Source of the DNA: Leucoraja erinacea
Lineage: Eukaryota
Assembly (NCBI RefSeq): GCF_028641065.1
Contig: NC_073378.1
Span: 107,198,001 to 107,262,000, forward strand
Reading direction: 5' to 3'
DNA: 64,000 bases
The notes beneath the pieces were generated by a model. That model searched no databases. It had not been told where the DNA came from and saw only the letters and a list, made by a program, of their open reading frames with translations. The position numbers and the translations under genes were made by a program. Numbering within the stretch: position 1 is the first letter of the stretch; every line of letters starts with the position of its first letter. Below are positions 1,555 through 63,325 of this stretch, piece after piece.

Positions 1555-1675
1555 AGACAAAAGTGCTGGAGAAATTCAGCGGGTGAGGCAGTATCTATGG
1601 AGCGAAGGAATAGGTGACGTTTCGGGTCGAGACCCTTCTTCAGACTGATGTGGGGGTGGTGGGGGGAAGAAGACT
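1555..1675 (-). mobile_element. Penelope-like element terminal (pLTR) fragment with hammerhead motif
   Basis: Matches the terminus of the GIY-YIG-bearing copies at 8401 and 42325; flanked by direct repeat ATAAGTGATGGT (1543-1554, 1676-1687). Confidence 0.8.
1615..1643 (-). ncRNA. Minimal type I hammerhead ribozyme motif
   Basis: Minus strand reads CTGAAGA-A-GGGT(CTCG)ACCC-GAAA-CGTC: catalytic boxes, stem II, palindromic ACGT stem III and GUC cleavage triplet. Confidence 0.65.
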
Positions 1676-2019
1676 ATAAGTGATGGTCTGTCCTCCTTAT
1701 CAATTGCTCAAATGTAATTCAACAGCCCAAATTATAGTGAAATAACATTTGTTTCCTGAGATTGATGTCGAGTTTCTCTATATATTTCTCCGACGTGATG
1801 GCAATGAATAAAGGGCTCTGATGGCCAGCACAAGCTCAGTCCAACACTGCTCTGCAGAGCAAAGACATTCAACTCGTTTTACTTCATCCAATGATGGGAA
1901 TGTGGAAGATAAGATTACTATATTTTCAGGCTTCTTCCATAGGCAAGTAGTTTAACACAACCTGACTGGTTCCTTACTGGTTATATGTTACTTACTGGTT
2001 ATGTGTTCTCCCTTCACCA

Positions 2020-2350
2020 ATCCCAATGTTTGAAAAGCCAGAATATAGTGGATGTGAAGAGGATATTTCAACTAGTGGGAGAGTCTAGGAACTGATGGCA
2101 CAACCTCAGAATAAAAGGAGATGAGGAATTTATTTTGTCAGAGGGTGGTGGATATGTGAAATTCATTGCCACAGTTTGTTATGGAGGCCGTGTCTTTGGA
2201 CATTTGTAAAGTGGAAATTGATAGGGTATCAAGGGTTACAGGGAGAAGACACAAGAATGGAGTTGAGAGGGAACAATAGAACAGTATGATTGAATGGCGA
2301 AGTAGACGCAATGGGCCGAATGGCATAATTTGGCTCTTATGAGTTACGAA
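2020..2350 (+). mobile_element. CR1 LINE 3' fragment (degraded)
   Basis: Similar to the 3' end and UTR of the element at 46409-49507 (gggccgaatggc motif). Confidence 0.75.
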
Positions 2351-2607
2351 CTAATGAATCATTTACGTTCACCAACAAACTCTGACTGTCTTGTGCTTTG
2401 GTTTTCCATAGGATAAGGCAGTGATTACATACAACATTAGGTTTGCTCTTTTCTCAAACTATGTAATATAGCCACATACAATAAATATGATGGTTCAAAA
2501 TTTCAATTGAAAAATAACTCATTCTACCAATCAACCTTCAGATTCATATGTATCCCGAATAAGTAAACATTAATAGCACAAAGTTGAATAATAAAATAAA
2601 TACTCAC

Positions 2608-2844
2608 AGTTACTCCAAAGAAATTGGTTTCATTCATGGAATCCAGAAAGATCTGACCAAGGTCTTTGTTCATGTAAGTAAAGTCGCGGATGGTTTGTGC
2701 ATGACCCATACGTTTCAAACTATCCATCGCTCGTTGTAAAGTCGTGGCAATTACCCAAATTCCATCATACGCAAATCCGTGAAATTTGCTATATTCAGCA
2801 CTACCTCTCATTTTGTTGTAGTCTTGCTCATATTGTTGAGGTGT
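2608..2844 (-). CDS. GABBR2: GABBR2(-like) coding exon, equivalent to human exon 7
   Basis: 237 bp, cag|ACA...ACT|gtgagt; TPQQYEQDYNKMRGSAEYSKFHGFAYDGIWVIA...MNETNFFGVT (inside ORF 2524..2880). Confidence 0.96.
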
Positions 2845-3135
2845 CTGCAGGAAATAATAAATACGATAAACACATTTCAATTCATGATCTAGGGTAAATC
2901 ATGAAGAAAATAAAAAGTTTACTTCTTTCTTCAGTTTTTCCATCCCGTTCACTTCCCCTACCACTGCAGTGTTCTCACATGGTGTTCCCAGCTCGCAGAG
3001 TAACATCACTTCTCCTCAGAATGGCAGGTGCTCCTCATGAATAGATTTAGTATTCTTGGCACATGATGAATTTCTCATAATTCATTCATGTTTATATGAA
3101 ACTCTGAACAGTGCATTGAAAACATAAATATTCAC

Positions 3136-3324
3136 CTGTCCAGATATCGTCTTGATGGCTTTTGTACTTAGTGGCTCAAAATCCACTGCTACATATCCTT
3201 CCATGGCAGTGAGCAGATGTTTCACAGTACAGTTAATGGATGCAGCTATTTTCCACCAGTTTAGCTGGTACCAGCCGGGAATAATCCATTGGTATTTAAT
3301 TCCATGCATATTTTCATTATAAGC
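3136..3324 (-). CDS. GABBR2: GABBR2(-like) coding exon, equivalent to human exon 6
   Basis: 189 bp, tag|GCT...CAG|gtgaat; [63 protein letters not shown] (overlaps ORF 3082..3309). Confidence 0.95.
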
Positions 3325-8400: not shown

Positions 8401-8772
8401 ACTTGGGCAGCTTACAACCCAGTGGTATGAATATTGATTTATCTAACTTCTAGTAACCATTGCGTCCCCCCCTCTCTCCATCCCTCCCCCCCAAGTTGTA
8501 TTAGTTTCAAAGTCGTCTTGTTGAGTCTCATTGTCTGCAACCTGTTTTCCCCAAGCTCACAGCTAACAATGGCCTGTTTCCTTTATCATCTTTTTTATTG
8601 TGATTATCTTTCATTCATTTGTTCTATATCTCTCTATATCAATCTCTATCTTTCATTTCCCTTTCCCCAACTCTCAGTCTGAAGAAGGGTCTCGATCCGA
8701 AACATCACCTATTCCTTTTCTCTAGAGATGCTGTTTCACCCGCTGATTACTCCAGCTTTTTTGTGTCTATCT
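8401..8772 (+). mobile_element. Penelope-like element 3' end (ORF C-terminus plus pLTR)
   Basis: Encodes LGSLQPSGMNIDLSNF*, homologous to the end of the GIY-YIG region near 42640-42690; hammerhead motif at 8679-8706. Confidence 0.75.
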
Positions 8773-8911
8773 TCCATATACATACTTGTATACCCATTTT
8801 CTGCTTTATTTCAAGAGAACCACTCAGGCTCTATATTTTGACAGTTCTCTACACAGCACTACAAGGTGCTGTATGGAAATAAGAATACTAATGTCACCAT
8901 TTCATACTCAC

Positions 8912-11946: not shown

Positions 11947-13839
11947 CTGTTAAGATCAAAATGAAAGAGAGATTATTGTCAATAATCTTATGAAGAATCG
12001 AGTGCACATTCTTTGATTAATCTTGCTTTATCCTCTCCCAGGTCAAAGTGCCAGAGAAACGATTTTCTTTTTCAGCAATGCTTTGAAACAATAATCTATG
12101 AGAAATGCTGCCCTCTCCCTCTCTCTTCAGCTAATGTAATCTGAAATGGCACAAGTGTTACATCTGAAGGGTGATGTTCAGGCTGAGTAAGGAGCCCCTT
12201 CAAAACCATAAAGGCAATTTATTTTCTTTGCAAGTATTCACTATTTCCCTTGCTGTGATCAGCTTCCAGGGCTGCCAATAGCCATATTTCTTGTGCCAGT
12301 CTTGCTAGCAGAAGCAGAATTTCATCTATGCCGAGTATTGTGGGCAAGCCTACTTCGTGACAGATAATTACCAGAGTTCCAAGGATCCTTCTGCTTTCTT
12401 TATCAGTGCTGCTGCTGTCAGCTATCATAGTGCATTCTGTAGATGTGAAGATAGCTAGATAGATTTGCCATTCCCTCGCAACAAACTTAAAAACATTGGC
12501 CATGGGCATGGACATGACAGTGTTGCGCATTAATTCCTGATTTCTTATAAATTTCAAATTTCCTGCACAGTGTAGACAGACATGAGAGTTCTCAACACAC
12601 TGGCCTTTGACTGCCTTCCTTTTTCTGACTGATGTTGGACTCCCCATGAAGTCCAATGGAAGAGTATGATGTGACACAAGAATGAATGAATGAATTATAC
12701 TTTATTCATTCATTTATTCATACATAAGAGTTGTATCTCATCAAGACTGAGGAACTCCCTCACCAAATAATCCAGGGCAGGTTAGACCGAGTACAGGAAC
12801 AATGCCTCGATTCACTAAATGGAGGGGATTAGGCACAAAGAATTAAAGTAGACTTCTGTTTACTTCATTTAGTCATTTACTTTTATAAAACAAATTAGTT
12901 TATTCAAAAATTAAAATGATCAACATATATTTAACTGCTCAATGTGCGGTGCTGTCGGGACTGCTATACCCAGCACAGTTGTGGACCATCCCCTGTTCCC
13001 CTGTCTTGGTGATGACCCTAGGCGATCATCCAGTTCATCTGAGGATCAAAGATGGATAAGGGTCTGATGGGCCATGTTGCCTAAATCCACAACGAAGGGT
13101 AAAAGCATGCCCAATGTCTCCCTCATCCTGATGGCTACCTTTGTGTGCAGCTGCATCAGGCTGTGCCTAGAACCTGTGGGCATCATGACATTACCTGCAC
13201 ATAAAATGGTGCATAATGGTTTACAAGTAGGAATCACAATGCACTAAACAAGAAAGATCTGGGTATTGAGAAAGTACGCATGAATTGAGATATAAGTTTA
13301 TGATAGGATTTTGTCATTAGATTTGTAAACTAGTAACCTGGACTAACAAGTGCAGGGATACCAATTCATCAACTAAGTGAAGGTCATAGTTAATAAACAT
13401 AATAAATGATAAGTGGGTTTTCTTACTATGTTTAATCTCAAGCACACACTATCATTGGTCTTAAATTTAATCTGTTCAGATTATTTATTGGGTTAAGTGT
13501 TAGATTAATTCCAAATTTAGCACCAGCTCCCAAAGATTAGTAATGGGGCTTCAAGGGCTGATCGGATTGAGTGTGCTCTTGTACAGTTCCTATTTACTCC
13601 TTCAGCTGCAACCAAGTCACTGCTTATTTCCTTTGCACTGGTTGAGATGCTACTAGTATTCTTTGTCATGGATTGAATTGCTAAATCCATTAATAGCTCA
13701 GATAGATATGGAGTCACACACTCCAGCCAGAATAGTCTGAAGAATGGTCCTGACCTGAAATGCCACCCATCCATTACCTCCACAGGTACTCTGCTGAGCT
13801 ACTCTCTCACTTTGGATGGGGTGGTGCTGGCTGGAAGGG

Positions 13840-15825: not shown

Positions 15826-16016
15826 CTTCTAATTAATATTTTTAAAGTCAAGCTATAACAAAAATTCAACAGATGAAAACTAAATCTTGCGATCACATTC
15901 CAGGAACATTTATTCTTTGACATCAATGCTTGTTGGCTGGCTGATAGGGTCAGAGAATGCTAGGTTGCGTTAGTCATGCTGGAAGTGCTTACTTACATGA
16001 TTGGCAAATATAAAGT

Positions 16017-16297
16017 GTGTGGGAACGAAATGGAGATGCTGGTTTAAAACGAAGATAGGCACAAAAATTTGGAGTAACTCAGCGGGTCGGGCAGCATCTC
16101 TGGAGAAAAGAAATAGGTGACATTTCGGGTTGAGAAACTTAACTGCATATCTTTCATTCATTTGTTCTATATCTCTCATTTCCCTTTCCCCTGACTCTCA
16201 GTTTGAAGAAGGGTCTTGACCAGAAACGTCACTTATTCCTTTTCTCGAGAGATGCTGCCTGACCCACCGAGTTACTCCAGCACTTTGTGTCTATCTT
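16017..16297. mobile_element. Penelope pLTR pair in inverted orientation
   Basis: Minus copy 16017-16135 followed by plus copy 16140-16297; degraded hammerhead at about 16203-16230. Confidence 0.75.
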
Positions 16298-16574
16298 TGC
16301 TGAATACAAAGGTTGGGCTGATGACATTATTTTGCAGACGAGTGTTAATCTTGGTGTCCTGGCCAATGTTTCTACTTCGATTGCATTACGGACATCCTGT
16401 TTTACCACTATCACATATCAGTTTGTGGAAACATCCCAGCACAAATTGCCAGTATATTTCCTACATTGAAAATAATATCAACTCTTTAATAAGTACTTCG
16501 TTAGCTGTAAAGTATCTTAGGAAGTCTGGATATCTTGAACAGTACGATGAGGTTTTTGTTTTAAGTCTTGGTTT

Positions 16575-16912: not shown

Positions 16913-18573
16913 TATGAAAGTGTGGCAACTCACAGCTTAATCAAGAAAAAGTGCCCCATAAATTCTGAGGAAATGGTTTGTTATGAAGCAGCATTAACAC
17001 CTCTTTCAACTGTCTTGCTATCAGTTATGACATACGGGCTAAAGCAAAGGTTATCATTTTGAAATTTGCACCTGACCGTCGAAAAATCTCTCCAAATCTC
17101 TGAACCTTTTAAAGATAAAACTTGGCCTTACCAAAGAAATGTAAGTCCTTGATCTATTCAAACCTTGTGAACATGGATGGTACCTGTGTTTAACCTCTCA
17201 TCCAAAGATACGACTGTTTTTCACCAATGCAATGAAATGTCCACTTCAGTTATGAGTTTTGCAGAACAGGGCTTGAACATGCAAGGTCCTGACCCAGAGA
17301 CTGGGTTGCTGGTACGGCACCAAGGCTGACAGCTGCGTCAGAAGCACATGCCCATATGAATGTAAATTGTACAATTAATATCAAGCTCATGATTTACTGT
17401 GGAATAATGTATCTGAAAGCGCAATAGCCCCTCAATATTTTTGATAGACCTCTCTCTCCCTCTCTCTCTCTCTGACATAGGGAAGGGGGGGGGGGGGGTG
17501 TATGAACATTGAATTGTCCAATTTTAGGTAACTAACCCCCAAACAACCTGCCCCATTTCACTCTCCTCTCCCTTTTTCCCTCCATTCATTTCCAGCAATA
17601 TTCCTTCCTCTGCCTTAACAATTGGCACCTTTTCTACCATTTGCCCTCACACCTTTTATCTTTTCATCTCTGGCCTTTGTCCTAATATCTGCCAATCAAC
17701 ACCTCAAGAAAATGCCTAGAATTGTGCAAAGCCAGCCACAGATAAGATTGGACAGAGGATAAAAGGAGGGGAAAAAAGACAAAAAATACGAAGGAAAAAA
17801 AAGGTGGAGCTAGCCATAAAGAGAAAAACAGATAGTGAACATTTCTAGTAATACTTTAAAAAAGAGAGCATCTGAGTATTGATCTTATGGAAAGAGTCTG
17901 GGGAATTCATAATAAAAAATAAGTGGATGGTGGGTGAATTCAACAGGAATGTTGCATTAGTCCTCTTTGGGAAATTTCCAAAAAGTAGCTAAAAATCAGG
18001 AATTGATAGAGTTGGGGAAAGTCAGAAAAGATTAATGAACATATAACTGGAACTGCACGTTGATTAATTTTTGGCTTTTGATGGCTTAATTTTAAAGTAT
18101 TAAACGAAGCAGCTCATGGGATGACTGCTGAGTTCATTTTAATGTACCAAAATTCTCTAGATTTGGGGAAGATTCCTTTAGTAAGTGTAAACCATAAATA
18201 TAAGAGATTACAAATGCTGCAATCTGGAACAGAAACAAACGACTGGTGGAATTCAGTGTGGAGGCAGAGAATTAATATTTTGTGTCAAGATCCTGCATTA
18301 GTACCCAAAATGATGACCATCCCTCAGTCTTCACAGGTGCAACTGACCCCCTGACTTACTTCAGCATTCTTTGTTCTGCAACAAATATAACTCCTTTCTT
18401 CCAAATGGGAGGGAGACAGAAAGCAAGAATTACAGACCAATTAGTTTACCTCTGTCACAGGGAGCAGGTTAGAAGCTAAAATTAAATGTGCCAAAGCAGT
18501 GAACTTTGAAAAAATATAAAGCAATTAGGCTAAGCCAACGTGTTATGTGAAAGTGAAATGCGACATTTGATTG

Positions 18574-18661
18574 GTCTGAAGAAGGGTCTCGACCTGAAAT
18601 GTCACCTATCCATGTTCTCCAGAGATGCTGCCTGACCGGCTGAGTTACTCCAGCACTTTGT
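18574..18661 (+). mobile_element. Penelope pLTR fragment
   Basis: ctgaagaagggtctcgacctgaaatgtc...gagttactccagcactttgt. Confidence 0.75.
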
Positions 18662-18874
18662 CCTTTTTTAAATACTTAACCAATTCTTTGAAGAAGCAAC
18701 ATACGGTATACAAGTGATGAAAGGGAACTAGTGGGTGTACTCTGCTTTGGATTCCCAGAGTCAATGAATAAGGTGCCAACTCAACGGTAAGGTGGGAAAT
18801 AAAGGCTAATGGTTTGAGTTGATTATTATGTACCGAGATACAGCAATTCTTCCAATCCCTCCATTGCTTTATAC

Positions 18875-22797: not shown

Positions 22798-22799
22798 TG

Positions 22800-24337: not shown

Positions 24338-25972
24338 TAATAATAATAATAATAATAATAATAATACACTTTATTGTCATTATAAATACATACAACAAAA
24401 TTTCAGGCGCACTGCCCGAGTGGAGCTCCAACGTAACAGATAAATAATAACGATAATGGAAACAACAAAAACGGCAAGAAAAACGTCGTCCGAATGTGCA
24501 AAATTTCACAGTATAGTGATGTGGCAGTACAAAGTATTGGCTATGGGAGCTGTGTGATCAGTGCAGAGTTCAGAGGGGTGATGGCCTTGGGGTAGAAACT
24601 GTTTGTTAATCTAGTGGTGTGTGATTCGATGGACAAGTAACGCTTTCCTGAGGGCAGAAGGGAAAACAAGTGATGTGCAGGATGAGATGAGTTATTTAGT
24701 AATAAGAAGTGATACCTTCTGCAGGCAACGAGAGCTATAGATCTTTTCCAGGGCAGGCAGGTGTGTGTTGGTGATCTTCTGGGCTGTATTGTTTAAGAAA
24801 ACTGCAGATGTTGGAAAAATCAAAGGTAGACAAAAATGCTGGAGAAACTCAGGGAGCATCTATGGAGTGAAGGAATAGGTGATATTTCGGGTCGAGACCC
24901 TTGTTGATGACTCTCGGCAGAGCCTTCTTGTCAGCCGCAGAACTGTTGTCATACCAGAATGCCATGTGTCAGGACACTCTCTATGGAGCAACGAAAGAAT
25001 GACATTAGTAGCTGCTGTGGCAAATTGACTTTCCTGAGTGATCTTAGGAAGTAAAGCCATTGTTGTGCCTTCTTTACCAGGGAGTGCGTGTTAGTTGACC
25101 GTCTGAGATCTGTTGAGATGTGGATGCCCAGGAACCTGAAACTGGAGACTCTGTCACGCTTTCTCCGTTTATGTGCAGTGGGGGATGGTCACCCTGCTTC
25201 TTCCTGAAGTCAATGATGAGCTCTTTTTTTTCTCTTTGTATTGAGTGCTTAGTTGTTCTCTGAGTACCAGCCTATTAACCTCTGTACCTCCTCCATGTAA
25301 GTTGACATTGCCCTCATTTATTACCCCCACCACTGTTGTGTCATCTGCAAATGTTATGATGGTGTTTGTGCTGTGGTTCGGTATGCAGTCATAGGTATAG
25401 AGGAAGTAGTGGGGGAGTAGTGGGGGAGTGGTGGGGTGTGGTGTGGGGGAGTGTGGGGGGTGGTGGGGGAGTGGTGGTAGTGGGGGAGGAGTGGTGGGGG
25501 GGTGGTGGGGTCTCATGGTGGATCCTGACTGACTGTGGCCGTTCCGTAAGGAAGTCCTTAGCCCAGAGCTAGATGTTGTGTTTGAAGTCTAGGTCGGGCA
25601 GCTTGGAGACCAGTCTACTGGGTACGATTGCGTTGAATGCAGAGCTGTAATCCACAAATAGCAGTTGTGCGTATGCGCCCCGTTGTTCTAGGTGGAGCAG
25701 TACAGTGTGGAGGGCAGAGGCAATGGCATCATCTGTTGATCTGTTTGCTCTGTACGCAAATTGGTTTGGATCCAGGGTTGATGGGAGAGCGGCCTTGATG
25801 TGTTTGAGGACCAATCTCTCCAGGCACTTCACAATTATTGGTGTTAGTGCAATCGGCCTGTGGTCGTTGAGGCAGGTTACGGCAGTCTGCTTCGGGACTG
25901 GCACTATTTCCGATGTTTTTACGCATGTGGGGACCATGCATTGTGCCAGGGATTGATTGAAGATTTTTGTCT
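24338..25972 (-). mobile_element. Rex1/Babar-clade LINE, 5'-truncated
   Basis: ORF 25569..26009 has [41 protein letters not shown]; FADD in ORF 25169..25516; (AAT)n tail at 24338-24366; interrupted by a Penelope pLTR at ~24790-24902 and by a G-rich tract. Confidence 0.85.
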
Positions 25973-27100: not shown

Positions 27101-30094
27101 ATTTCCCTAACTTGCAAGTCATTGACTTTGTGCTGAAAGGCAAGATTTGGTCCGATAGCTCTTTTTCAACTGGCTGTAATGATCAGATAAATGACCCACT
27201 TCTGTGTCATAATTGGTCTATCAGTGTCTCCTTCAGTGATACAGTAGCATTTTTGTTTTGTTCGATAATCTCCTGTAAAATGCTTTGGCGCGCTTTCATT
27301 GTGTTGAAACTGCCAGAGAAATTGAAGTTATTTTCATTGTTACAATAAAATATTGCAAGGCTATTCACAAGAACACAATCGGAAATATTGCACTGAATCA
27401 CATTGTTCCAATGGCCAAAAGAAACAGTCAAAGAGCTGCTTTTACACATTCTTCAAAAGAAAGGGTAAACTGATCCTCAGGCATCTCTCTAATACACTTC
27501 AAATCCAAAAAGAACAGTTAGAATGCCACAAACCTCAACAGAAACAGTGAAACATTGGACTGACATAAAACTAAATCAAAAAGATACATCCTTAAAACAT
27601 TTGTGTTTTTTTGCAAATTATATCAAAGTAAAAAGTTCTCCATCTTATAACAAATCCTGTTGATATCTAACTTGCCACCAGAAAGTCTATCACATATTGA
27701 AGGGGGTTGTTGAGAATCCATTCCCTGTGCAAATTATTTGGAATTTCTCCAACAGTCGAGGACCCATTTAAATGTTCTTATGAAAAAAATACAACTCTAT
27801 TACTTTTTGCAAAAATATGTTGAAAAACAGTCCATAGGCCAAAATTAGGCAGAGATCAAATCAGTGTTGATCTCTGCCTTACTCCGAACCCATCTGTGCC
27901 CCATTGGCTCAGATTTACTGCCGTTAGGAATGAATTGAAAACCAGTATTATTGTGCAGATTGCGCGATGGAATAATTTAAAGTAGCTGCAACGCTATTGT
28001 AAGGTCTACGTAAGAAACAACCTTCTCTGCAGAGGCATTGATATCCAGCAGATACTTTTATACCATGATGAAAAGGATCTTTTCATTTTATAATGCTTTG
28101 AAATTTCTGGCATTTATAGAAGAACACCTATAGGTTACACGAGCATCGTGACAGGATTGATTGGAGAATTTTTTAATTTTTTTTAAAGAGCTTCTTTGAA
28201 ACAGCAGGCTCAGTTTCATTCAGAATACAATGTAAATCACAGCAGGAATAAGTTTCCTGAAAGACAAATCCAGGGATTTATTATGTTGCTTCAAATTATA
28301 GAGTGTGGCATTCCAACTTTACCCTGACATTGTCTCCAGCCTGCCAGTTCCTTTGTGTTCCTCCTTGCACTACTGAGACAAATTAAAGATGACATGCCTT
28401 TTCTTTCATTCATTTACAAAAGGGATTGCCCCTTTCTCTCAGAACATTGCAAGTCTCTAGAACTCTTCTTCACAGGGCAGTGGAAGCGAAAGTATTTGAA
28501 TTTTTTTAAAGGAGATATTTGATAAGCACAGGAATTAACATTTACCAGGAGGGTTGGGGAATTGATATTATAATGACATCCACAATTGTATTAAAACGGT
28601 GGAAAATGCTTGAGAGTCTGAGGGTCAATTCCTGCTCTTGATTTATATCTTCTATATTCATATGCCAAGTTCTTAATTCAAATTAGTTATACACAGGGAT
28701 TAGTTTATCCTGGTGTGCATGAAGCTCATTGAGTAAACAATACACATGATAATGATAGTGTTTACAACAATAAACACTATGATGAGTGCAAAACAGCAGA
28801 ATTGTGCAAAGATTATAGTGCGATCAAAATTGGTGCAAAAAAAAAACACTTAAGTCCAATAACGGAACAACTAAATGAGATAAATTTAAGAGCAAGTCTG
28901 TGCGAAAGAGGTGATTGATTCAGGAGTTTGAAAGCTGCGGGGAAGAAGCTATTCTTAAGCCAGATGGCTGGGCTCTCAAGTGCCTGTCTCTCCCAGCAGA
29001 TGAAACAGAGAAAAGGAAATGGCCAAGATGACAGGCTTCCCAGCCTTCCTGTAGCAACACACCATGAAGATGGATTGGATGGAAGGAAATAACAGGCCTG
29101 TGAAAGACTGGGCTGTGTTTCCCATACCACACAGTGATACTTCCTGCAGAACCTCTTGAAAGAATGATCAATTAAATTTTGTACAAGAATCGTGAAATCC
29201 AAAAACTCTCATTAGATATGTCAGTCAAGAATACTTCTTATATCTCTATATGGACTTCCTAACAGGGAAAGGATACCAAAATAAATCTTCATTGGTGCCC
29301 TAATTTGGCTCAGTTAGTGGTTCAGTTGCCTCTGGTTATAAGCTTGTGAGCTGAAGATGTGATCTAGAAACAGCTGGAAATGATTCATGTGCCAATACTT
29401 TATGGCGAGGAGTGCCTGATATTGGACCCCGAGTCATATTTTCATAAGTCTCTGAGTTGCGGAAACATGTTGGATTCCCCGAGGCATCGTCGTTTACAAA
29501 CAAGTAATACATTTTTTATCACAATGCATTTATCAATAGTTATCCTCAAACTATCCTTAGAATAGGCAAGGTATGGCTGAACAGGTGAAAACAGACCAAT
29601 GGGGAAAAGCATGAGATTGAGAGAGGAGGGAGAAATCACAAGGAAGAAACCAGTGTGGAGGATATGATCCATTGCATGCTGATAATAGAATGGCAGTACA
29701 GGCTGCACTTCTCTCCATTTGACTTTGGTTTTAAATAAGATACAGCCATCTTCCTGGTGCTGGGTTTGGGTGTCTTATTAGTGATAGTGGTCGATCTGAA
29801 ATGTGGACCCGAGTCCTCAGTCCCACCCCTCTACTTCTACCTCTGACCGACATCTCTCTCATCCAATCGCCGCCCTCGATCACCAGTCCCACCTCCACTG
29901 TCTTGCAGAAAGCGGAGATTTTTAATCTATTTTTTTTTCACCAAATTTTAAAATCCGGATTCCAAAACATGGGGGGAATCGTCCCCCACCCCTCAAAATA
30001 TGGAGGGGGCCTGTTCCCCCTGTCCCTCCCGGGATTTCCGCCCATGCCAACAAGTGTGCATGGGAGACAAATTTTGCAGAGAGATCTTTCTGTG

Positions 30095-30192
30095 GGTACA
30101 CAAAAATGCTGGAGAAACTCAGCAGGTGCAGCAGCATCTCTATGGAGCGAATGAAATAGGCAACGTTTCGGGCCGAAACCCTTCTTCAGACT
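30095..30192 (-). mobile_element. Penelope pLTR variant with intact hammerhead motif
   Basis: Minus strand 30162-30189 reads CTGAAGA-A-GGGT(TTCG)GCCC-GAAA-CGTT. Confidence 0.75.
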
Positions 30193-33100
30193 TTTTTTGT
30201 GTGGGTGTTTGGTTGCTCATTTACATATGCAAATGTCACCACTGCAGTTAATCCATAACCCGGTAAACTGAGATTTGAGAACTAATTTTGGAGCGTTAAA
30301 TTCTTAACCCAGGATGATACATCAAAGTGGCATTTTATATTGCTTCGTGGATGAAATCTCAAATAACATCCGGATTACCTGTGTGCGCGTCATGAAAAAC
30401 ACACAGCAGTGCATGAAAGGAAGCTTCTCATTTTCCTGATGTCTCAACTAATCTTCTTGATGAAGCCACTTGACAGAAACTAACGCACTCTGTATTATCA
30501 TTAGTGTCTATGGAATATTATTTAATCTGATTAATAATCTTGTATCTTTAAGGATTCGAAACCATTTTTACATAAAATGAGCAGTACAAAACATAATCAA
30601 ATCTTATTATTATCAGAATAAATCTGAATGATCCACTTCTGTAAATTGGATTTTATGATTTTAGTTAAACATATCCTTGGAATATCACTGACAATGAATG
30701 TAGATATCAACATTAACATAAACATCATCCCCAACTAACATCACTGGAAAAATTAACCTCAATTATCACCCAGCAATCAAGAGGAGTATAATGCAAGAGA
30801 TAGATTTGTTGTCTTGAGTCAAAAGAAATCCGCAACACAATGTGGCCAATTATTTTGCTGAATAGCAGGATTCCCAATGTTTGGAGGGATCATAACTTGC
30901 ATTCTGGTGATTCATTGCTCTGTTGATATCCGCATGAATCAGAAGGAATTTCATTGAAAACACTTTACTCCTTTGAAACATTCTGTATAAATCTAATAGC
31001 TTTCTGAATACAGCTGGCTTTAGTTTTAAGGTTTGTGCTGTGTGCTGCTTCATGACTCAGGAGAAATCACTGTGGAAAATATCAAGGCCCCAGATGCTGT
31101 AGAGCAATGCAGAGTAGGAATATATAAAAGCGACAAACTGTTCTACTGATCATAAGCATATGAGCGATTTGCAAAAGCTCTGATCTCAAAATAGTCCAAT
31201 GTTGAATATGTGCCCCTTGCATTTTCACATGCCTTCCACCAGGTCACAAGGATTTATGTGCCTTATATTCTTAAAGGCTGTTGAATATCTACTTTAACCA
31301 CAGGACAACATTTTTGTAAAATTATTTTTGCACAAAACAATCATGATTTTGATAGTTGTAAATATGTGTCATTATTCTTCTCTGGCGTTTCATAATGATT
31401 TATATAAGTGCTCATATATGTTATATATTGAGAGCAGAGGTACCAAAATTATGACTTTACAACAATCGCTCAGGTCAAATCAATCTGAGCAGCAGAATCT
31501 CTTCATGAACTCCCACCAACATGGAGAATTCGGCCAACAAAAGCAGCATTGGGTCAAGGAGGTTGAGTTGTGGGGTTTGTGGTCAGAGAGAGCAACAAAA
31601 CTTGTGTGGGAATGCAGGAAAGTGTTTGAATATGTGGGGAGGGGAATTAGGTCATAGAGTAAAATAATAGTTTGGATGGGGAAAAGGGAAAGGTCACGAC
31701 GGTGGGTGCTGGTTAAAGGAGTGAATTAGGGGGAAGAATTCAAGGAGTTCACTGCGAAGTGAAGGGGCTGACCCGAGGATACTGGCACCAAGATCCCAAG
31801 GTGCAGCAATGTTTTTCACACCATTTAAAACATATTTTCATTTATCCTTCTTACCCAGATGGATAACCCAACTTATCTTAGTACCTAAGCATAGACATTG
31901 ATAATTAAGGCATTGAATATGCTGGCGTGCATCTTCCATGGTGCAACTGTGATACATGATTGTTCATGTGGAAAATAGACTCCCTCCGGTAAAGCTAAAT
32001 GGCACACATGCAAAGATCAAAAACAGGAAGTAGTAATAAAACTATCGTGGACATAAAGAAAAAAAATATTTAAAAAAAACAATTATGGTTTTTCTCAATT
32101 TTAAGATCCTCATTTATCTTGAAGTATTTCATTTCAATTAGATATTTTAAAACAGTCACCATTGCAAAAAGGGGAAATGCCGAAAGAACATTATTTTTAC
32201 AAATGAACAAAATCTTGTAAACTTCAAAAGTACATTCAATTAGCATTACTCTCAAACAGCTCCTGCAGTTGTATGCTCCTACTTGGCAACTATTTTGATC
32301 TCTTATTGTGACTGATGAAAAACTGGCAGAGCCCCCAATGAAACAATGGAGCAGCAGTTGTATTTCCCAGTGCCGTTCCTGAGAGTTTTTTGGCTGACAA
32401 TCAAGGGGTGGACCTTCTTCAAGCTCCTTATGAGGCAAATGGCAATTACAGCCACAAGCCACTCAAGCGGTAGGAAAAAAAATAATATTTGAAGAATTGG
32501 ACTGCTGAAATCTTACTGTTAATTAAAGGAACAGCCAAACGTCTGCTGTTTGCATTTCATTGAGCCAATGAATGGTAAAATTGATTAACAAGAAAGTCTG
32601 CCTTGGGGACTGGACAGTTTTGACCACAGGTGTCAAGACCAGCTTGTAATAATTTAATTGGTGCCACATTCACTATTCTTCAACGCCATTTGTCTGGCTA
32701 GATCTATGTTGTGATAAATCAAAGGGCCTCTGTTGAAATGTTCAAGTTATTTTCATCAAACATCAAGTAAAAAGGATTCTTGAAAGGACGTCAAATTAGG
32801 CGATACTTGAAAACCAGGTGTGGGGATTGTTTGTGGTTGTGCATTGTGAGCAGTACATTTGAACTGGATATGCCTGCTTGTTAATGAGATTGATGGAAGC
32901 AGCTTGCAAGATCCACAGCACCATCACCTGCACCGTTCAAGAGAGATCCTGTCATAGGGTGTTTGCAGTCTTAAAAACAAATGCATTGTACAGATAAAAT
33001 GCAATGTGGCGACAAAAGAAGGTGGATGTTATTTCAAAACTGCACGTGATTTACAGCACTCTAGAGAAGTGGGAGAAAAACCTGTTAGATATATGCACAG

Positions 33101-33312
33101 TGGCAGAGGATAAGGGAATCCTGAAATAATTGGGGGATTGGAAGTAGATTATGGGAAAGCAAACTGAAGTGCAGCAAAGATCAATTCCACATATTTTGTT
33201 TAAAAAATAGCAATGCAATGCATAAAGAACTTTAATGTGCTGGCATAACCTGTTGAGATAAGACTTCAATCCCCATACTGCATATTCTGATAATGATACC
33301 CATAGTCTTATC

Positions 33313-35733: not shown

Positions 35734-37174
35734 TTGACTGTAGTTGTAAAAACTAAAGTTGTTGTAATTGTTTTTTTAAGGCATTTCAAACTAGTAATTC
35801 TACATGGAGCAAAACAGTTTTCCAAAATAATGCACTGTAGGCCCTTATCCCAATGGCTAGAATAAATCTGGCCTCAGAGGATTGATCACCATCAATAAGG
35901 CACAAAATGCTTTAGGAGGTCAAAATATTTTTAGCCAAATGAAAATGTCATTTCACAGTTTCAGGGAGATAATTTTTTATATTAATGAATAAATCAGATT
36001 CAGGCCATGAAACCCAGATGAATCTTGTGTTGTTATTACCCAAGATCAGTGTATTCCCTCAGGGTAAAAAAAAAATGAAAGGAGCTTTTATAGAGGGAAA
36101 ATGACATGGAAGTTTACATGGAAAATCACATGGAAAGCCTCAAAGTGACACCTGGGTGATGTGTGGCCTTTGTCAGTGCATCTTTCAAAAATCAAATAGT
36201 TGAAAAGAAAAAATGATTAATCTTGACATTTCTGCTACCTCTGTTGTTTATCTTATTCTCTCTACTTGCATAAAGGTCGTAAACATTGATCAAATTCTGT
36301 TACATGCGTCGAGCTTGTTATACAGACCTTCCAGCATAAACAGAAATAATCACATCTGTGTCGAATCACAAGCCATTTAAAATCTAAAGTTAAATTATTA
36401 TTCTTGATTTGTGCAAAGTACATTATCTTATAACTGAGTTGTGTTATTGGGGAAGTCTACTGTACTAGAAAAATAAGAGCAGGAGAGGACCGCCAGGAAC
36501 ATTCATAGTGATCATGGCTGATTAAAGCTGACCTTTCCTCCTCTTCTGAATCCTATACCACCAGCCTCAATTCTACAACCTTTCAAATAGTTTTCTATCT
36601 CAAGCTGAAATACTGCCACTGTACTTTCCGAGCACATTTAAAAAAAACAATTGATGCTTTCTGAGATAAATTAACTTAATCTGCATAACTTTTATTGTTT
36701 CCATGGTTTCCTGTCTCTCTTTATTTAATAGATTTAATATCTATGCCTCCCACAAGTATTGTTCACTAAGGTCCAAAACGCTGGTCATTTCCTCAGATAT
36801 CTTACTGTACTTACAGTAGGCCATACCAGATTCAAATTCTATCATTATCTCGTGATCGCATTAGTCTTATGCTTTTAACCAGAAATGTTTTAAACGTATC
36901 ACCAAATAGTTAAACAATTTCATTTGTTTCTGTTCATTTCATTTTACATTATCACTATACTGAGCTTTGATTTCTTCACTTGTCCTACTGCCAAGCTTTT
37001 GTACTGAGCACTACTACACCTTCTGTCGTTTATTAATTAGAGTCACAGAGTGAAACAGCATTGAACCAGGCCCTTCAGCCCAACCTGTCCATGCAACCCA
37101 AGGTGATTTCCTAAGCTAGTGGCAACACCTGCATTTTGCCCACATTCTTCACAAGCTTCCTCTGTTCAAATATA

Positions 37175-37585
37175 AACACAAAGTGCTGGAGTAACTCAGC
37201 AGATCAGGCAGCATCTCTTGAGAAAAAGGATGGGTGACTTTTCGGGTCGAAACCATTCCTCAGACTGAAACTAGGGGGTGGAGAGCTGAGGCAAGACAAG
37301 ACCAGGACCAATCAGGGCCAGCTACAAATAATCTCAGGTAGTGCAGTGTCCATGGTGGGCCCATTGTTGGCCAGGGAAGGTGTGATCACAAGACAGATAC
37401 AATTTGGAGAGCTGAGGCACTAGTTAAACAACTAGGTGGGAGAAAAGGGGCAAGGGGGGAGGGGGAAGGGGAGGAAAGTGTAGGTAGAAGTTACTTAAAT
37501 TTAGAGAATTCAACATTCATACCATTGGGTTGTAAGCAACCAAAGCAAAACATGTGATGTTGTTCCTCCAATTTGCGTGGCTTGA
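37175..37585 (-). mobile_element. Penelope-like element 3' end
   Basis: pLTR plus ORF C-terminus homologous to 8401-8772 and 42325-42700. Confidence 0.7.
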
Positions 37586-42277: not shown

Positions 42278-43555
42278 AGTTTAGTTTAGAGATATAGCAT
42301 GGAATCAGACTCTTCAGCTCACCAGATAGATACAAAATGCTGGAGTAACTCAGCAGTACAGGCAGCATTTCTGGAGAGAAGGAATATGTGATGTTTCGGG
42401 TCGAGACCCTACTTCAGACTGACTTCAGGGGGGAGGGAGATAGATAGATGAGGAAGTGTGAAGGTGTGAAAACAGGTCAAAGGGAATGGAGATCAAGGAA
42501 AGTGTAGAGTACATAATCTTTAGCTGGGAAACGGTAACAACAAAGCAAACAGAGATAAAATATAATCGGAGACAGTCAGACTGGTCGGAGAACAGGGAAT
42601 GGGGAGGGATGGAGAGAGAGGGAAAGCAAGAGTTACTTGAAGTTAGAGAAGTTAATGTTCATACAACTGGGGTGTAAGCTGCCCAAGCAAAATATGAGAT
42701 TTGCACTGGGCCTCACTCTGACAATGGAGGAGGTCCAGGACAGAAAGGTCAGTGTGGGAATGGGAGGGGGAGTTAAAGTGTCCAGCAACCGGGAGCTCAG
42801 ATAGGTTCAGGTAGACTGAGCGGAGATGTTCACCTAAACGATCGCCGAACCTACGCTTGGTCTCGCTGATATACAGGAGTCCATACTTGGAACAGCAGAT
42901 ATAGTATATGAGGTTGGAGGTGGTGTAAATGAACCTCTGCCTCACCTGAAAAGACTGTCAGGGTCCTTGGACAGAGTCGAGGGGGGAGATATATGGACAT
43001 GTGTTGCATTTCCTGCAGTTGCTGGGGAAAGTACCTGCGGAGGAGGTGGTTTGGGTGGGAATTAACCAGGGAGTTGCAGAGGGAATGGTCTCAGTGGAAA
43101 GTGGAAAGGGGTGGAGATAGAATATGTGGCTAATGGTGGGATCCTGTTGGAAGTGGCGAAAATGTCAGAGGATTTTGTGCTGTACAGTTGATGGGCTGGA
43201 AGGTGAGGACCAAGGGACTCTGTCCCTGTTATGACGGGAGGGTAGGGGGGCAAGAGCGGACCTGTGAGATATCGAGGAGACCCTCGCTCGCTAGGTCCAT
43301 GCCGACCATCGATCACCCATTCACACTTGTTCCATGATATCCCACTTTCTCATCCACTCCTTTCACACAGCGGGGTAATTTACAGAGGCCAATTAACCTA
43401 CAAACCTGCACATCTTTGGGATGTGGGAGTAAACTGGAGCACCCGGAGGAAACAGAGAGAATGTGCAAACACCATGAGATGGCACTCGAGGTCAGAATCA
43501 AACCTATATCTCTGGCACTGTAAGGCAGCATGTCTATCAGCTGTGCCACTGTGTT
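42278..43555 (-). mobile_element. V-SINE split by a Penelope insertion
   Basis: SINE tail at 42278-42324 and body/head at 43287-43555 flank the PLE. Confidence 0.7.
42325..43286 (-). mobile_element. Neptune-type Penelope-like element fragment (Cys linker, GIY-YIG endonuclease, pLTR)
   Basis: ORF 42652..42945 SNLIYYICCSKYGLLYISETKRRFGDRLGEHLRSV is a decayed GIY-YIG; upstream GTFPSNCRKCNTCP Cys motif near 42995-43035. Confidence 0.85.
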
Positions 43556-44865
43556 ATCCCATGTGGAAATAACAAAATAAGCTGTATGGACTTTAATACA
43601 CTCTTTCAGTGATGACATTTTCATTAGCAAATTAATTTATTGACATGAGCTTAAAATATATACCAATGACAAAACTGTTGCACTATTTCATCTGATGCTG
43701 TTCTAAACTGGTGAGACCAGGGAAAGAGTTACCTGGACAGAGTAGGTGCTGATTTAATCATTTTCAACAGTTTTCATTTTTAAGTTGATCAAAGGTGTAA
43801 TAGTGATTAATACATATGAAATAAAGCCTTAGATCTGTTTCTGGATTTGGAGTTGAATCGAGTATTTTTGTGTTTTAAAGAGTTGGGAAAATGAGGCTTG
43901 TGTTAACTGTTTAGGATAACAGTAAAAGTGTAACATATTGGCATGACAGTCTTTGAAAAGAGGTGCCAACTCATTTAGAATAAATAGTCAATCTGCTCAA
44001 TTCTGACAGCAATCATTGCTGTCCTCCAGCTGTTTCGGTGATTGGTAGCCGCAAATCACAATGCAAAGTAAAATCATTTATCTTTAAGATTCTGACGGGA
44101 TGTCACAATACCAATTGCAGCTCAAAACATAGATGGTTATTTTGTGTTGTGCAGCTTCCTTTACCAGAGTTTGAATTGACGGACAGCAACTAAATCAATT
44201 GCTGAACTGTCTTGTTTATTTTTGGCGGTTTGATTTATCACTCTTTCTTTAACTTGAACACTTTTACTGCAAACTGATGCAGATAGATGCCAAAAAGTGG
44301 ATTGTAAATACTCGATAGGATAGAATACAGACTCCCAAGTCATAATTAAAAGGAACACTTTGATCTCAGATTTAATTGAAATTGTCGTGTAGTGTATTAC
44401 CAATGCATATTGAATAACATAGTTTTGGTTCTTCTAATCTCCTAAATCTAGGCTTGAAATTTGTTTTGTACAAATTTACAATGTCTTTACCCCGAAGTAA
44501 CAAAGAACTGCAAATGCTGGTGAATATACAAAATGACACAATGTGCTGAAGTAACTCAGCAGGTCACAAAGCATCTCTGCTTTTTTCTGGTGAAGTTGCC
44601 AAGCAGCAGTATGTGTATCAAGTGGTAAATGGAACTACAAATACAATCTTAGCTGACTTCAGAGGAGTAGCCTGGGCACAGGAAGAGAAACCATTGCAGG
44701 TGATTGGATGAATAAGAATAGTATTGATCCCATCAAGCTGGATCGTGATGAAGAAGATAAAAGTGTGGTCTCCCGTGACTAATTCAACAAATTGAATCAG
44801 AAAAATGCAGAGGGTTAAGAAATCGTTTTTCTCTATGGGATATAGAGAAATAGAGAAGATAGCTT

Positions 44866-60475: not shown

Positions 60476-60620
60476 GGCAGCACGGTGGCACAACGGTAGA
60501 GTTGCTGCCTTACAGTATGTGCAGCGCCAGAGATCCAGGCGCTGTCTGTACGGTGTATGTACATTCTCCCCATGCCCACATGGGTATTCTCCGAGATCTT
60601 CCGTTGCCTCCCACACTCTA
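60476..60620 (+). mobile_element. V-SINE 5' fragment
   Basis: ggcagcacggtggcacaacggtagagttgctgccttacag head. Confidence 0.75.
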
Positions 60621-60763
60621 ACCCTTGAGTTTATGCATTCATTTTCTTTCCCACTGCTACCCAGATCATTCACAAATGATTTCCATAGAAGATGTGATTT
60701 ATCTAGCGTGTTTCTATTGTCTGGTTACTTGAAATTATATCATCCCCACCCCCCTGTCTAAAA

Positions 60764-61752
60764 CTAGACTAAGTGGGACCCGTTGGGTCCCAGTCACACG
60801 GGAGACCCGTGGGGGAGGGTGGGTGTGGGGGGAGGGGGGGGGGGTGTGGGGAGGGAAGGTGGGTGTGGGGAGGGGGGTGGGGGGTGGGGAAGAGGGGGTG
60901 TGGGGGAAGAGGGGTTTGGGAAAGAGGGAAGGGGGAATGGGGAATTGGGGGAAGGGGGGGTGGGGGGGGGAAAGGGGGGGTGTGGGGAAAGCGGGGGTGT
61001 GGGGAAAGCGGGGGTGTGGGGAAAGAGGGGGGGTGGGGAAAGGAGAAAGAGGGGGGGAGAAGGGGGGGGGTGGAGAAGGGGAGGGTGTGAGAAAACGGGG
61101 TGGGGACTAAGACTAATGCTCCTGTCCCACTTAGGAAACCTGAACGGAAACCTCAGGAGACTTTGCGCCCCATCCAAGGTTTCCGTGTGGTTCCCGGAGG
61201 TTGCAGGTGGTTGCTGGAGGTTGCAGGTAGTGGAAGCATGTAGGGAGACTGACAAAAACCTCCAGGAACCTCCGGGAACCGCACGGTGGGGCGCAAAGTC
61301 GCCAGAGGTTTCCGTTCAGGTTTCCTAAGTGGGACAGGGGCATTAGCTTAAGTTTTCGGCCTCACGCAGCAGATCCTGGACCCACTCTGGCTTCACTCAA
61401 AGGCTTCCGGTTCAACTCAGTAGCTTCCGGCTGGTCGCGGCAGAAGCAGTCCGCACGCTGCTCACTCTCCGCGAGCTGCTCAACACACTCAGCTTTTTAT
61501 TCTCCTCGCCGCGTTATTGACAGTCGGTTCCAGAAAGGGCGATATTTATGATTTCTAAACCTTCATAACTGTTGTACTATTTCACCGATCGGAACAAAAC
61601 TTATTTGACTTGCAGCAAAGGAGAATGGTGAGTAAGGTGGCAAAAAATCGTAGCGCTATGGGGGATCGTTTTTGCACAAATTTAAATACAATGCAGACCT
61701 GAAGTGGTCAAGATGAGAGTTTTAGTAATAGTATAGATAGATAGATATCGAT
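60764..61752 (-). mobile_element. Non-autonomous Helitron-like element
   Basis: Minus strand starts (TCTA)n-TACTATTACTAAAACTCTC and ends with perfect hairpin GGGACCC-AAC-GGGTCCC plus ACTTAGTCTAG|T. Confidence 0.75.
61116..61343. mobile_element. Harbinger-type MITE (family C) nested in the Helitron-like element
   Basis: About 55-bp TIR ATGCTCCTGTCCCACTTAGGAAACCTGAACGGAAACCTC; TWA-type flanks. Confidence 0.85.
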
Positions 61753-61845
61753 AGAAGACAAAGTGCTGGAGCAACTCAGCGATTCAGGCAATGTCTCTGG
61801 AGAAATAGAAGGGTGACATTTTGGGTTGGAACCCTTATTCAGACT
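61753..61845 (-). mobile_element. Penelope pLTR fragment (degraded)
   Basis: aagtgctggagcaactcagc...gggttggaacccttattcagact. Confidence 0.65.
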
Positions 61846-63107
61846 CTCCATTAACATTCCTACCCCTTCCTTTTCTAATTGTTTCACCTTTTCAGACAAT
61901 ATAGCTTGAAATATATATCTCTAATCATACTCAATATAGAGCTAGGTTTCAGTGATGGTCAACACAGGGACCCTTTTATTTACATGTGTGGTTTTAATCC
62001 CTATTTTTGATTTGTTATATTAATTATAGAATTTATAGAAAATTAGCATTTATAGAAAATATCTTCACTGGGCATTAAAACTAATCAATCCTTCCATCTT
62101 ATGCTGTTTCTCCTTGCACTTTTAACATTTTAAAATATGATATTTCAATTGCAAAGTTTTAAGATTCTTTTCCATTTACTCTTCCATTATTTTCTCTATC
62201 GATTTTAACTATCCAGAATATCTGTAATATAGATTTGACCATTTAAAAAAATAACATCTTTAATTTAGTCATTTATAACATTGATATTTCTGCCTGTTCC
62301 CTCCTTTTTACCTTTGTTATTGGCTAAGTATTTTATTTACAAAACTGGAGAGATTGCAGAGATATTCACCAGGATGTTGCATGGATGAAAGGACCTTAGC
62401 TTTGGGGAGAGATTGGATTGTTTACCCTGCAGCAGAAGTGGTGACCTGGTGGATGGAAATAAAATTGAGGGTCATGCTTAAGTAGGTAGTCAAAATATTT
62501 TTCCCTTTTATAATGGTATCAAAAACAAGGAGTTTAAGACACGAGGAAGATTTAAAGAGGATCTGAGTGCTGATATCTGGAACATGTTGCCAGAGGAGAT
62601 GGTGGAATCACACACAATTAGTAGATTAAAAAGGTATTTAGACAGACACTTAAGCAAGCAATGTACTGTACGATATGGTCCTAATGCAGATACATGGAAT
62701 TAGTGTAGTTGAGCAAAAAGGTCAGCATAGACATGGCGGGCCAGCAGATCAGTTCCTGTTCCGTTCAACTCTCTGACCGTCAATGACACATTACAGGTAT
62801 AACCATTGAGGAAGACATAGTTGAAATCTAGCCGATCTCCCCAGTCTTGTAACCTGCCTGCAGGCATGCTGTGTTCATAATTTGTTGCACTCAAGCATGC
62901 CCTGTTTACACATATAACCTCTAGAAATTCACATCATTGATAATTTACTTGAGTAAGCTTTGATCATTTCTGAGAATAAATGAACACATGTGAACAAACA
63001 TTTAAATAAAAAGCTTTCATTTCATTGTTTTCAATTTGATCAATTTGGGCATTTCAAATCGAAAATACAATCAAGGCAATTCTACAAAATCAACTCCCTC
63101 TGCTCTT

Positions 63108-63325
63108 TGTATAGGAAAGAACAGCAGATACTAGTTTAAATCGAAGGTAGACACAAAATGCTGGAATAACTCAGCGGGACAGGCAGCATCTCTGGAGAGA
63201 AAGAATGGGTGACGTTCTTCAGACTGAAGAAGGGTCTCGGCCCTAAACGTCACCCAGTCCCTCTCTCCAGACATGCTACCCAGTCCCTCTCTCCAGACAT
63301 GCTACCATTTTGTGTCTGTCTTCAC
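63108..63325. mobile_element. Inverted Penelope pLTR pair
   Basis: Minus copy to ~63223, plus copy from 63224 with a mutated hammerhead box (TAAA for GAAA); internal ~26-bp tandem duplication. Confidence 0.75.

Follow-up and report, generated by a model that had tools for sequence, protein, structure and literature searches.

Short hammerhead-bearing termini of an abundant Penelope-like element in Leucoraja erinacea: insertion boundaries and inverted pairs

The 64,000-nt stretch of Leucoraja erinacea DNA considered here (NCBI RefSeq assembly GCF_028641065.1, contig NC_073378.1, forward-strand positions 107,198,001 to 107,262,000; hereafter the window) contains a dispersed repeat which carries a minimal hammerhead ribozyme motif. 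This repeat is the terminal repeat, or pseudo-long terminal repeat (pLTR), of an abundant, endonuclease-bearing, putatively Neptune-type Penelope-like element (PLE). We consider it probable that its short copies are dead-end products of reverse transcription, which would have begun within the pLTR, with uncut RNA as template, and in about half of single insertions ended at the front edge of the hammerhead, this edge probably being the start of the template RNA. The value of the data lies in the scale and the statistics of these boundaries and not in the ribozyme. The very many insertion boundaries record steps of PLE replication, among them the position of the RNA start, the origin of pseudo-LTRs and inverted ends, and the purpose of the hammerhead.

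The repeat, its parent element and its abundance

Searching the window with one seed copy (1546-1660, minus strand) gave 15 termini, all at E ≤ 3.4e-8. Iteration to a profile raised the number to 17 at E ≤ 3.1e-10, corresponding to about 14 insertions; the best E value of the profile across five shuffled windows and one reversed window was 1.3. As the profile was built from the window copies themselves, the single-seed result is the fairer one. A sequence-only reading of the window had listed the repeat at eleven places, all of which were recovered, and six termini are additional to that list (13730, 16196, 18301, 33390, 44530 and 63218). At 16017, 33313 and 63108 the repeat stands as listed, but the head-to-head pairing of the copies (16050/16196, 33310/33390 and 63140/63218) had been missed.

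The Penelope-like origin proposed in the same reading is supported by the presence of the terminus on copies bearing reverse transcriptase (RT) and endonuclease (EN) sequences. Used as genome queries, an EN piece gave 75,939 first-look candidates and a thumb piece 27,897, and in most of 30 EN loci the terminus lies 250–530 nt downstream of the EN. The motif also follows the ends of GIY-YIG open reading frames (ORFs) in the window, as had been noticed, at 8402(+), ~37560-37470(-) and 42957-42600(-). A single ORF holds the RT together with a C-terminal GIY-YIG endonuclease, with the order RT, thumb, linker and EN in copies L137, L135 and L033; the Pfam matches (GIY-YIG, E 0.034; RVT_1, E 0.0015) were obtained on decayed copies and both fall short of the curated cut-offs, and for another EN piece (L033) Pfam gave nothing at E ≤ 0.01. 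Several longer copies have a C-X4-C-XX-C linker (C-NRRR-C-NT-C). A CX2-5CxxC zinc-finger linker between RT and EN marks Neptune and Nematis (PMC8557442; statements on this and the other papers cited by number refer to the portions of them available to us), and on this linker the element is putatively assigned to the Neptune clade. Locus L230 has the order untranslated region (UTR), hammerhead, terminus, tail and ORF start, and L247 is arranged likewise with an EN end upstream in addition, which makes it a full tandem. Because the same terminus stands after the EN and, in these two loci, ahead of the ORF start, the repeat is a pLTR; hammerhead-bearing pLTRs are present at both ends in partial or full tandem, as in other EN-bearing (EN+) PLEs.

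Nine long Penelope copies (L219, L221, L222, L224, L227, L228, L231, L232 and L233; oriented ~745-1308) have a different common 5' sequence where the ORF start would stand; in several it begins at the same base, and three share a further AT-rich stretch upstream. The shared start was considered as a pLTR and rejected, the sequence being a different one; the group may be a chimeric subfamily, joined to a promoter or to another mobile element. Locus L201 (C1372) contains a tandem of ~2.4 kb holding thumb/EN pieces.

Genome-wide abundance was estimated from 140 stretches of 10 kb (1.4 Mb) chosen on a grid from large contigs, small contigs lying outside the sample. These hold 612 termini, that is 4.4 per 10 kb or ~4.3% of the sampled bases, which extrapolates to 0.96 million termini in the genome (bootstrap 0.85–1.07 million). 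An earlier profile had found 314 termini in the first 80 stretches (corresponding to 0.86 million) and none in the reversed control. Exact patterns run against the whole genome matched 33,814 intact GUC cores and 26,585 intact GUU cores; the reversed pattern matched none.

Insertion boundaries, inverted pairs and the origin of short copies

The 5' ends were studied in non-inverted copies reaching the first box, 223 of 235 having enough flank. In 116 of these 223 single copies fewer than 20 nt of upstream sequence are homologous to any other copy. Among 103 short copies anchored on the core, agreement with the parental YCAGT is 79% at -1 and has dropped to background by -5, with a contiguous match of 0–5 nt. 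The pyrimidine share upstream is 0.49 in short copies, as against 0.83 in long copies. Expressed per nucleotide at risk, 5' ends occur at 0.021 at the front edge (a generous 25-nt bin), at 0.002–0.007 further upstream, at 0.003 around the cleavage site and at 0.015 inside the core, the last partly from alignment decay. A pile-up at the cleavage site was rejected, since only 8 of 294 single copies and 6 of 156 pair arms end there. The 3' ends fall into two groups ~35 nt apart, and target-site duplications (TSDs) of 10–18 bp flank 22 of 99 short copies (1.7% in shuffled pairings). Thirty loci were chosen by their ORF start; a hammerhead lies ahead of it in 13, eight of which begin at -7..+3 (classed by eye). 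Short and long copies divide alike between the two assignable subfamilies (36/34 and 17/13), 95 of 195 copies being unassigned.

A splice-acceptor origin of the 5' end (CAG/T) was also rejected: short copies often retain A(-3) and G(-2), and they have no common upstream exon. At the other end of the repeat, the tail (terminus columns 92-125, e.g. 24790-24830(-)) holds a pyrimidine tract followed by CAG; it resembles a splice acceptor in the sense direction of the element and could be exonised in host introns.

The sample contains 123 head-to-head pairs, which account for 239 of the 612 termini (39%), as against 11 tail-to-tail pairs and an expectation of 12.7. At 123 per 1.4 Mb the genome would hold ~190,000 such inverted pairs, and these could form long RNA hairpins in host transcripts. 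After filtering by score and length, junctions were examined in 78 pairs, three of them from the window. The 156 arm ends include 64 at -6..+1 and 30 in stem II, besides the six near the cut site; the joint often falls on palindromes belonging to the hammerhead itself. Six pairs have one common junction centred on stem II, of which there are 1,735 exact cases genome-wide, and the core-centred junction has 1,448; joints of a cleaved and an uncleaved arm that would extend stem I amount to 0–1 exact cases in the 1.4 Mb. Of 58 well-covered pairs, 44 have both arms in the same subfamily, where 15.5 would be expected, and 12 rare alleles are common to the two arms (1.5 expected), though this sharing could come in part from later gene conversion between the arms. 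An exact TSD flanks 17 of these 58 pairs and 7 of 571 controls. Of 86 pairs, 56 have a single tailed arm, 3 have two and 27 have none (p=1e-4). An inverted, 5'-truncated copy and an optional tail of 30–40 bp at one end characterise EN+ PLEs, and both are seen here; that PLEs have inverted copies, palindromes at the junctions and tails on one side only is known (PMC8557442, PMC3846280).

The sequence at the 5' boundary, YCAGTCT, fits the initiator consensus. If it proceeds as in the anole element in vitro, reverse transcription would begin within the pLTR at either of two sites, with uncut RNA as template. The complementary DNA (cDNA) would usually end at the hammerhead front edge by run-off at the 5' end of the RNA, after which two cDNA ends may join, or one may fold back, at self-complementary parts of the hammerhead, which likely serve this purpose. 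Run-off is the leading reading because the 5' boundary lies on this initiator-like sequence and an internal promoter that includes an initiator is known from the Drosophila Penelope (PMC2377424). Between run-off at a transcription start within YCAGTCT and a stall or endonuclease cut we nevertheless see about even odds. Solo copies are likely unable to spread further, if the analogy holds, because in the anole the protein depends on RNA that extends past the start site. Rather tentatively, the element mRNA may start 2–4 nt before the core, and the hundreds of thousands of short copies may be strong-stop-like cDNAs, begun inside the 5' pLTR and run off the 5' end of the RNA, which integrate, join a second cDNA end at the palindromes, or transfer to the 3' pLTR to give long and tandem copies. 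If this were true, the hammerhead would act in DNA joining and strand transfer no less than as a ribozyme, and in the GUU subfamily described below the catalytic fold would have been traded for a 15-nt palindrome favouring joints.

A number of observations weigh against an origin of the short copies from reverse transcription that ran off the RNA. The junction overlap is at least 1 nt in only 22 of the 78 pairs, the others abutting or holding inserted bases; 45 of 257 5' ends lie at profile columns 13-24, inside the core, partly through alignment decay; a TSD by the strict rule accompanies only 22% of short copies; and 5 of the 13 ORF-start copies run on into the UTR. No intact full-length ORF was recovered. 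Eight raw-read RNA runs of related or like-labelled organisms (species match unconfirmed) were mapped on two tandem loci, and no pile of read starts or ends at -3 was present in any of them, the libraries being fragmented or 3'-primed. A cap-like G at -4 was not seen (5 G of 18 non-C), and the base counts at -3 (24,435 A, 3,888 G and 2,812 T) are ambiguous as a cap signature, as the excess of G is explainable by A>G change or by a subfamily.

The same missing G at -4 and missing RNA starts lend weight to the strongest alternative, which keeps the by-product origin but has the 5' end mark a stall, a template switch or an endonuclease cut at the hammerhead front edge and not the start of the RNA; its chances are appreciable, if below even. 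Such a stop would suit 5' ends that are ragged over 0–5 nt, the additional ends inside the core and the similar stop fractions of terminal (116/223) and ORF-start (8/13) copies, and EN-mediated resolution has been invoked for PLE ends (PMC8557442). However, the stop comes just past the structure and on the initiator-like YCAGTCT, for which the internal promoter of Penelope offers a parallel (PMC2377424), and run-off with transfer to the 3' pLTR would likewise give equal stop fractions.

We regard it as improbable that the short units propagate themselves as a non-autonomous family, resembling short interspersed elements (SINEs) or retrozymes and mobilised in trans, as the sequence-only reading implied when it took most copies for non-autonomous, ribozyme-only units. 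The shared 5' boundary, the TSDs of their own, the very high copy number and the recurrence of identical palindromes (the 1,735 and 1,448 exact junctions) would all be accounted for, and trans mobilisation via pLTRs (PMC3846280) and PLE-derived retrozymes (bioRxiv 10.64898/2026.07.22.740005) have been published. Against this, the subfamilies are common to short and long copies in like proportion, the 5' ends are ragged, ORF-bearing copies stop at the same place, and many units, among them the 1,735 stem-II-centred palindromes, are without a catalytic box altogether. The six stem-II palindromes differ from one another while the arms of each share private variants, as would be expected of separate births, and the anole RNA needed for reverse transcription extends beyond the start site into sequence that solo copies do not have (PMC11167929). 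Neither a master distinct from the autonomous partner nor a fixed 5' end, as in SINEs, was found.

The hammerhead motif, the host gene and the copies in the window

A column profile of 111 high-scoring copies contains both boxes, one unpaired base after A9, G10.1-C11.1 and a loopless ACGU. This confirms the minimal type I layout claimed for these termini (CUGANGA, GAAA, NUH, the unpaired base after A9, G10.1-C11.1 and a palindromic 15.2-16.2). The boxes are thus conserved at the level of the consensus, though inserted copies decay passively. An Rfam scan of the window gave no hammerhead family at E ≤ 10, the matches being hairpin artefacts on palindromes. In 57 intact sampled cores stem I measures 2 bp in 36, 3 bp in 5 and 0–1 bp in 16 (three positions scored), and the suspicion that monomer activity is doubtful appears justified. 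A helix I of 4–5 bp is typical of minimal type I hammerheads, and one of 2 bp is present in the D. virilis variant. The changes in stem II are confined to U-A to U-G (147 vs 42 of 213) and to the loop, with no double-sided change seen.

In the young GUU subfamily the loop has become UUCG, U-A has become U-G, C17 has become U and A1.1 has become G, and these changes create a 15-nt palindrome whose hairpin is predicted to absorb GAAA. The predicted probability of stem II is 0.00–0.05 for the core at 30189 and 0.81 for the short form of that at 1643, falling to 0.03–0.12 in the latter when more flank is included; for the best copy the dimer is predicted to lie only ~1.7 kcal/mol below two monomers. 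The GUU subfamily is the least diverged (mean divergence 4–6%), yet it has ~26,000 intact cores despite the predicted block to folding, and catalysis may be dispensable for its spread.

In copies ascertained by their hammerhead, the boxes are changed in 5.7% and the downstream columns in 10.4%. Copies ascertained by protein and anchored downstream (38 of 47) give 4.1% and 5.3%, respectively (p=0.47), with an intact core in 5 of the 38. Selection on the boxes of inserted copies was rejected, as the contrast is gone once the ascertainment is removed; the boxes of inserted copies decay passively, like the neighbouring sequence. At the level of the masters, the conservation of core and stem II relative to downstream columns is a trend (p=0.10–0.25, one CpG-decay cluster being counted against it). 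The motif is probably kept in master elements, where it would need a dimer and probably protein help.

The placing of GABBR2 on the minus strand was correct: a coding exon at 2608..2844(-), with AG/GT ends, matches solved chains of GABA-B receptor subunit 2 (PDB phmmer, E 1.3e-27), and KYQW, QWII and FFRTVP, which we take to be GABBR2 motifs, lie in frame near 3297(-) and 54028(-). Most window copies are likely intronic in this gene; 10 termini are sense and 7 antisense to it, with no depletion of sense copies. The suggestion that minus-strand copies could cut the intron did not hold up well. Cutting of the GABBR2 pre-mRNA is unlikely because the only two intact sense cores must pair through 4 bp, sit 28.5 kb apart and include one that is predicted to misfold, and the boxes show the decay given above (4.1% vs 5.3%).

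In the eight RNA runs, 0.09–0.7% of reads match the terminus loci, nearly all on the terminus itself, and 89–97% of long reads continue into unlike flanks, which fits passive read-through. No pile of read starts or ends lies at the hammerhead cut site in these runs, the libraries being unable to show caps or 5'-OH ends. The read-joint tables contain no well-supported spliced form of the element, no search having been aimed at a retained spliceosomal intron, a feature of some EN+ PLE families, and a few joints that go back match internal tandem duplications of the terminus, in libraries without circle enrichment. At L247:1295, in the 3'UTR, more than 1,000 reads in each of three single-cell runs finish with a long poly(T) stretch where the UTR is T-rich; they are either antisense transcripts with a poly(A) tail or the result of internal priming there.

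It is very improbable that sense copies act as ribozymes on the pre-mRNAs of GABBR2 or other host genes and are under selection, in either direction, for doing so. In favour of this, ~33,800 GUC and 26,600 GUU cores are intact, dimer partners exist among the reads and hammerhead-ascertained copies show the box contrast (5.7% vs 10.4%). Against it, ascertainment and unresolved subfamilies bias this contrast, which is gone in the 38 protein-ascertained copies, the short stem I (2 bp) and small predicted dimer gain (~1.7 kcal/mol) are unfavourable, no reads end at the cut site, sense copies are not depleted in the window, and published minimal hammerheads are without monomer activity and low as a dimer (PMC4209133) or are protein-dependent (PMC11167929).

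Eleven window copies were checked base by base, and both boxes, the 4-bp stem II and ACGU are retained in two of them: 1616-1643(-), which reads CTGAAGA-A-GGGTCTCGACCC-GAAA-CGTC, and 30162-30189(-), which reads CTGAAGA-A-GGGTTTCGGCCC-GAAA-CGTT. The listed copies had been said to carry all or part of the hammerhead; the repeat is present at every one, but the full core is limited to these two. The copy at 61843, among the eleven, is degenerate in either reading register, and the remaining six window termini are partial or miss the first box (profile coordinates). The stem III described as AACGTT at 30162 is actually the 4-nt palindrome ACGU, AACGTT being due to C17 = U in that subfamily.

The first of these cores belongs to the short copy at 1555..1675(-), which has ~30 nt of 3'UTR, an intact GUC minimal hammerhead, a tail-less terminus and an exact 12-bp TSD at 1543/1676. 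The second belongs to a short GUU-subfamily copy at 30092..30196(-), with a UUCG loop, U-G pair, U17 and G1.1; its boxes are intact, stem II is predicted to be unfolded, and a repeat of 11 nt with 1 mismatch (taken without a control) flanks it at 30087/30196. Other short copies lie at 18570..18667(+), starting 2-3 nt before CUGA with a 3-bp stem I and a broken stem III; at 24790..24915(-), tailed and with a degenerate first box; at 13730..13817(+), old and divergent with a broken stem III (profile and base-by-base check); and at 61754..61850(-), degenerate and adjoining an ATCT-type microsatellite. Profile matching also placed a very divergent partial copy at 18301..18381(+), with a possible inverted partner at 18229-18300 that is below significance (E 0.13), and a partial tailed terminus without hammerhead is found at 44530..44579(-).

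Two 5'-truncated elements have a hammerhead with a broken stem III. One, at 8402..8775(+), comprises the last ~16 codons of the GIY-YIG ORF, the 3'UTR and a stem III reading ACAU, and is flanked by a repeat of 10 nt with 1 mismatch at 8393/8772 (without a control); the other, at 37172..37585(-), comprises the GIY-YIG ORF end and UTR and has an exact 11-bp TSD at 37161/37586. The longest window copy, 42324..43281(-), runs from the thumb end through the Cys linker and a frameshifted GIY-YIG domain to the UTR and a hammerhead in which both G8 and stem III are mutated.

There are three inverted pairs. At 16016..16299 the minus arm is tailed and truncated in stem II, and the plus arm has a UTR remnant and a mutated first box. 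The palindromic insertion at 33313..33504 is joined at the TCGA centre of stem II, is without a CUGANGA box and is tailed only on the plus arm; it has an exact 15-bp TSD at 33298/33505, and its hairpin has an energy of -125 kcal/mol (z -19.9). The pair at 63108..63324 is joined at a TTCAG-A-CTGAA palindrome, its minus arm tailed and without stem II, its plus arm with TAAA in place of GAAA and an internal duplication, and a repeat of 11 nt with 1 mismatch at 63098/63325 flanks it (without a control). The exact duplications at 1555, 33313 and 37172 bear out the claim that some copies have their own TSDs; with 1 mismatch allowed, none was found at 5 of the 9 places tried.

The window also holds other repeats. 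An open frame of 1004 amino acids with endonuclease and RT motifs, at 46401-49415(+), is presumably a CR1/L2-type long interspersed element (LINE); a second, decayed copy at ~20790-22810(+) is 92–95% alike to it, and many 3' fragments are scattered in the window. Fragments at 34746-35661(-) are, we assume from their motifs, of a Tc1/mariner-like transposase. A GC-rich tandem array at 45058-45790, with units of 42–66 nt and GCA/GCG triplets, is open in several frames, and an inverted repeat at 61106-61353, with 97-nt arms 54 nt apart, is unrelated to the Penelope terminus.

Comparison with known systems

That Penelope termini carry minimal hammerheads has been on record since 2014 (Cervera and De la Pena, PMC4209133), so that the ribozyme motif itself was already known, and the boundary just before CUGA is the new detail. 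Literature searches found no strong-stop or run-off account for PLEs, and titles and abstract openings held no description of this family in sharks or skates; Repbase and Dfam, which lay outside the search, may catalogue it. Like the metazoan pLTR hammerheads of 2014, the present ones have the CUGANGA and GAAA boxes, the unpaired base after A9, G10.1-C11.1 and a loopless palindromic stem III, and are mostly single dispersed motifs with opposite-strand pairs nearby. They differ in that helix II has 4 bp (7–8 in Schistosoma) and helix I only 2 bp, and in that U17 and a competing hairpin are present in one of the abundant subfamilies. Intact cores number ~60,000 here as compared with ~4,000 in coelacanth and 9,000 in Xenopus, though the search rules differ, and no cartilaginous fish was found in the available text and one searchable supplement of that paper. 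Dimer cleavage was reported by Lunse et al. (as cited in PMC6765202).

The EN+ Neptune and Nematis PLEs (Craig et al. 2021, PMC8557442) share with the present element an RT with C-terminal GIY-YIG, the CX2-5CxxC linker, partial tandems, the inverted 5'-truncated copy and the tail of 30–40 bp at one end. Unlike them, most insertions here consist of the pLTR only, and the ~0.96 million termini, although counted differently, far exceed the 37,000 copies given as high for Naiads.

Non-LTR retrozymes (bioRxiv 10.64898/2026.07.22.740005) are also short PLE-terminus-derived sequences with a type I hammerhead, and are reported in one cartilaginous fish too. They are head-to-tail tandem units, whereas copies here are single or head-to-head and tandems are occasional. 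Tandem units, each with an intact hammerhead, are absent from the window; in the first 80 stretches a same-strand neighbour lies within 600 nt of 44 of 305 termini (~19 expected), and the short head-to-tail runs in L008 and L029 are of truncated termini, mostly without the first box.

The Penelope pLTRs of Adineta vaga (PMC3846280) offer head-to-head inverted pLTRs, junction palindromes, solo pLTRs and an initiator-like sequence, as here, together with TSDs of 8–10 bp. Their inverted pLTRs, known from few copies, were explained by self-priming on an antisense template; in the skate element it is the hammerhead that supplies the palindromes at the junctions, and these are countable in thousands.

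The closest mechanistic parallel is the Anolis Poseidon element PAc (Frangieh et al. 2024, PMC11167929). There, the RT initiates internally on the RNA, at two sites by which the tail is defined; extension takes place on both target strands, the template is mainly uncut RNA, and the hammerhead cuts only with the protein present. The present termini likewise have two 3' end positions defining the tail and no ends at the cut site, and their ends fit the PAc scheme. The ORF starts ~35 nt after the tail here and within the hammerhead in PAc, and a 5' boundary at the hammerhead front edge was not found described in the available portions of that paper. The 5' boundary away from the cut site, the one-sided tails and the arms from the same source translate into direct predictions for this existing in vitro system.

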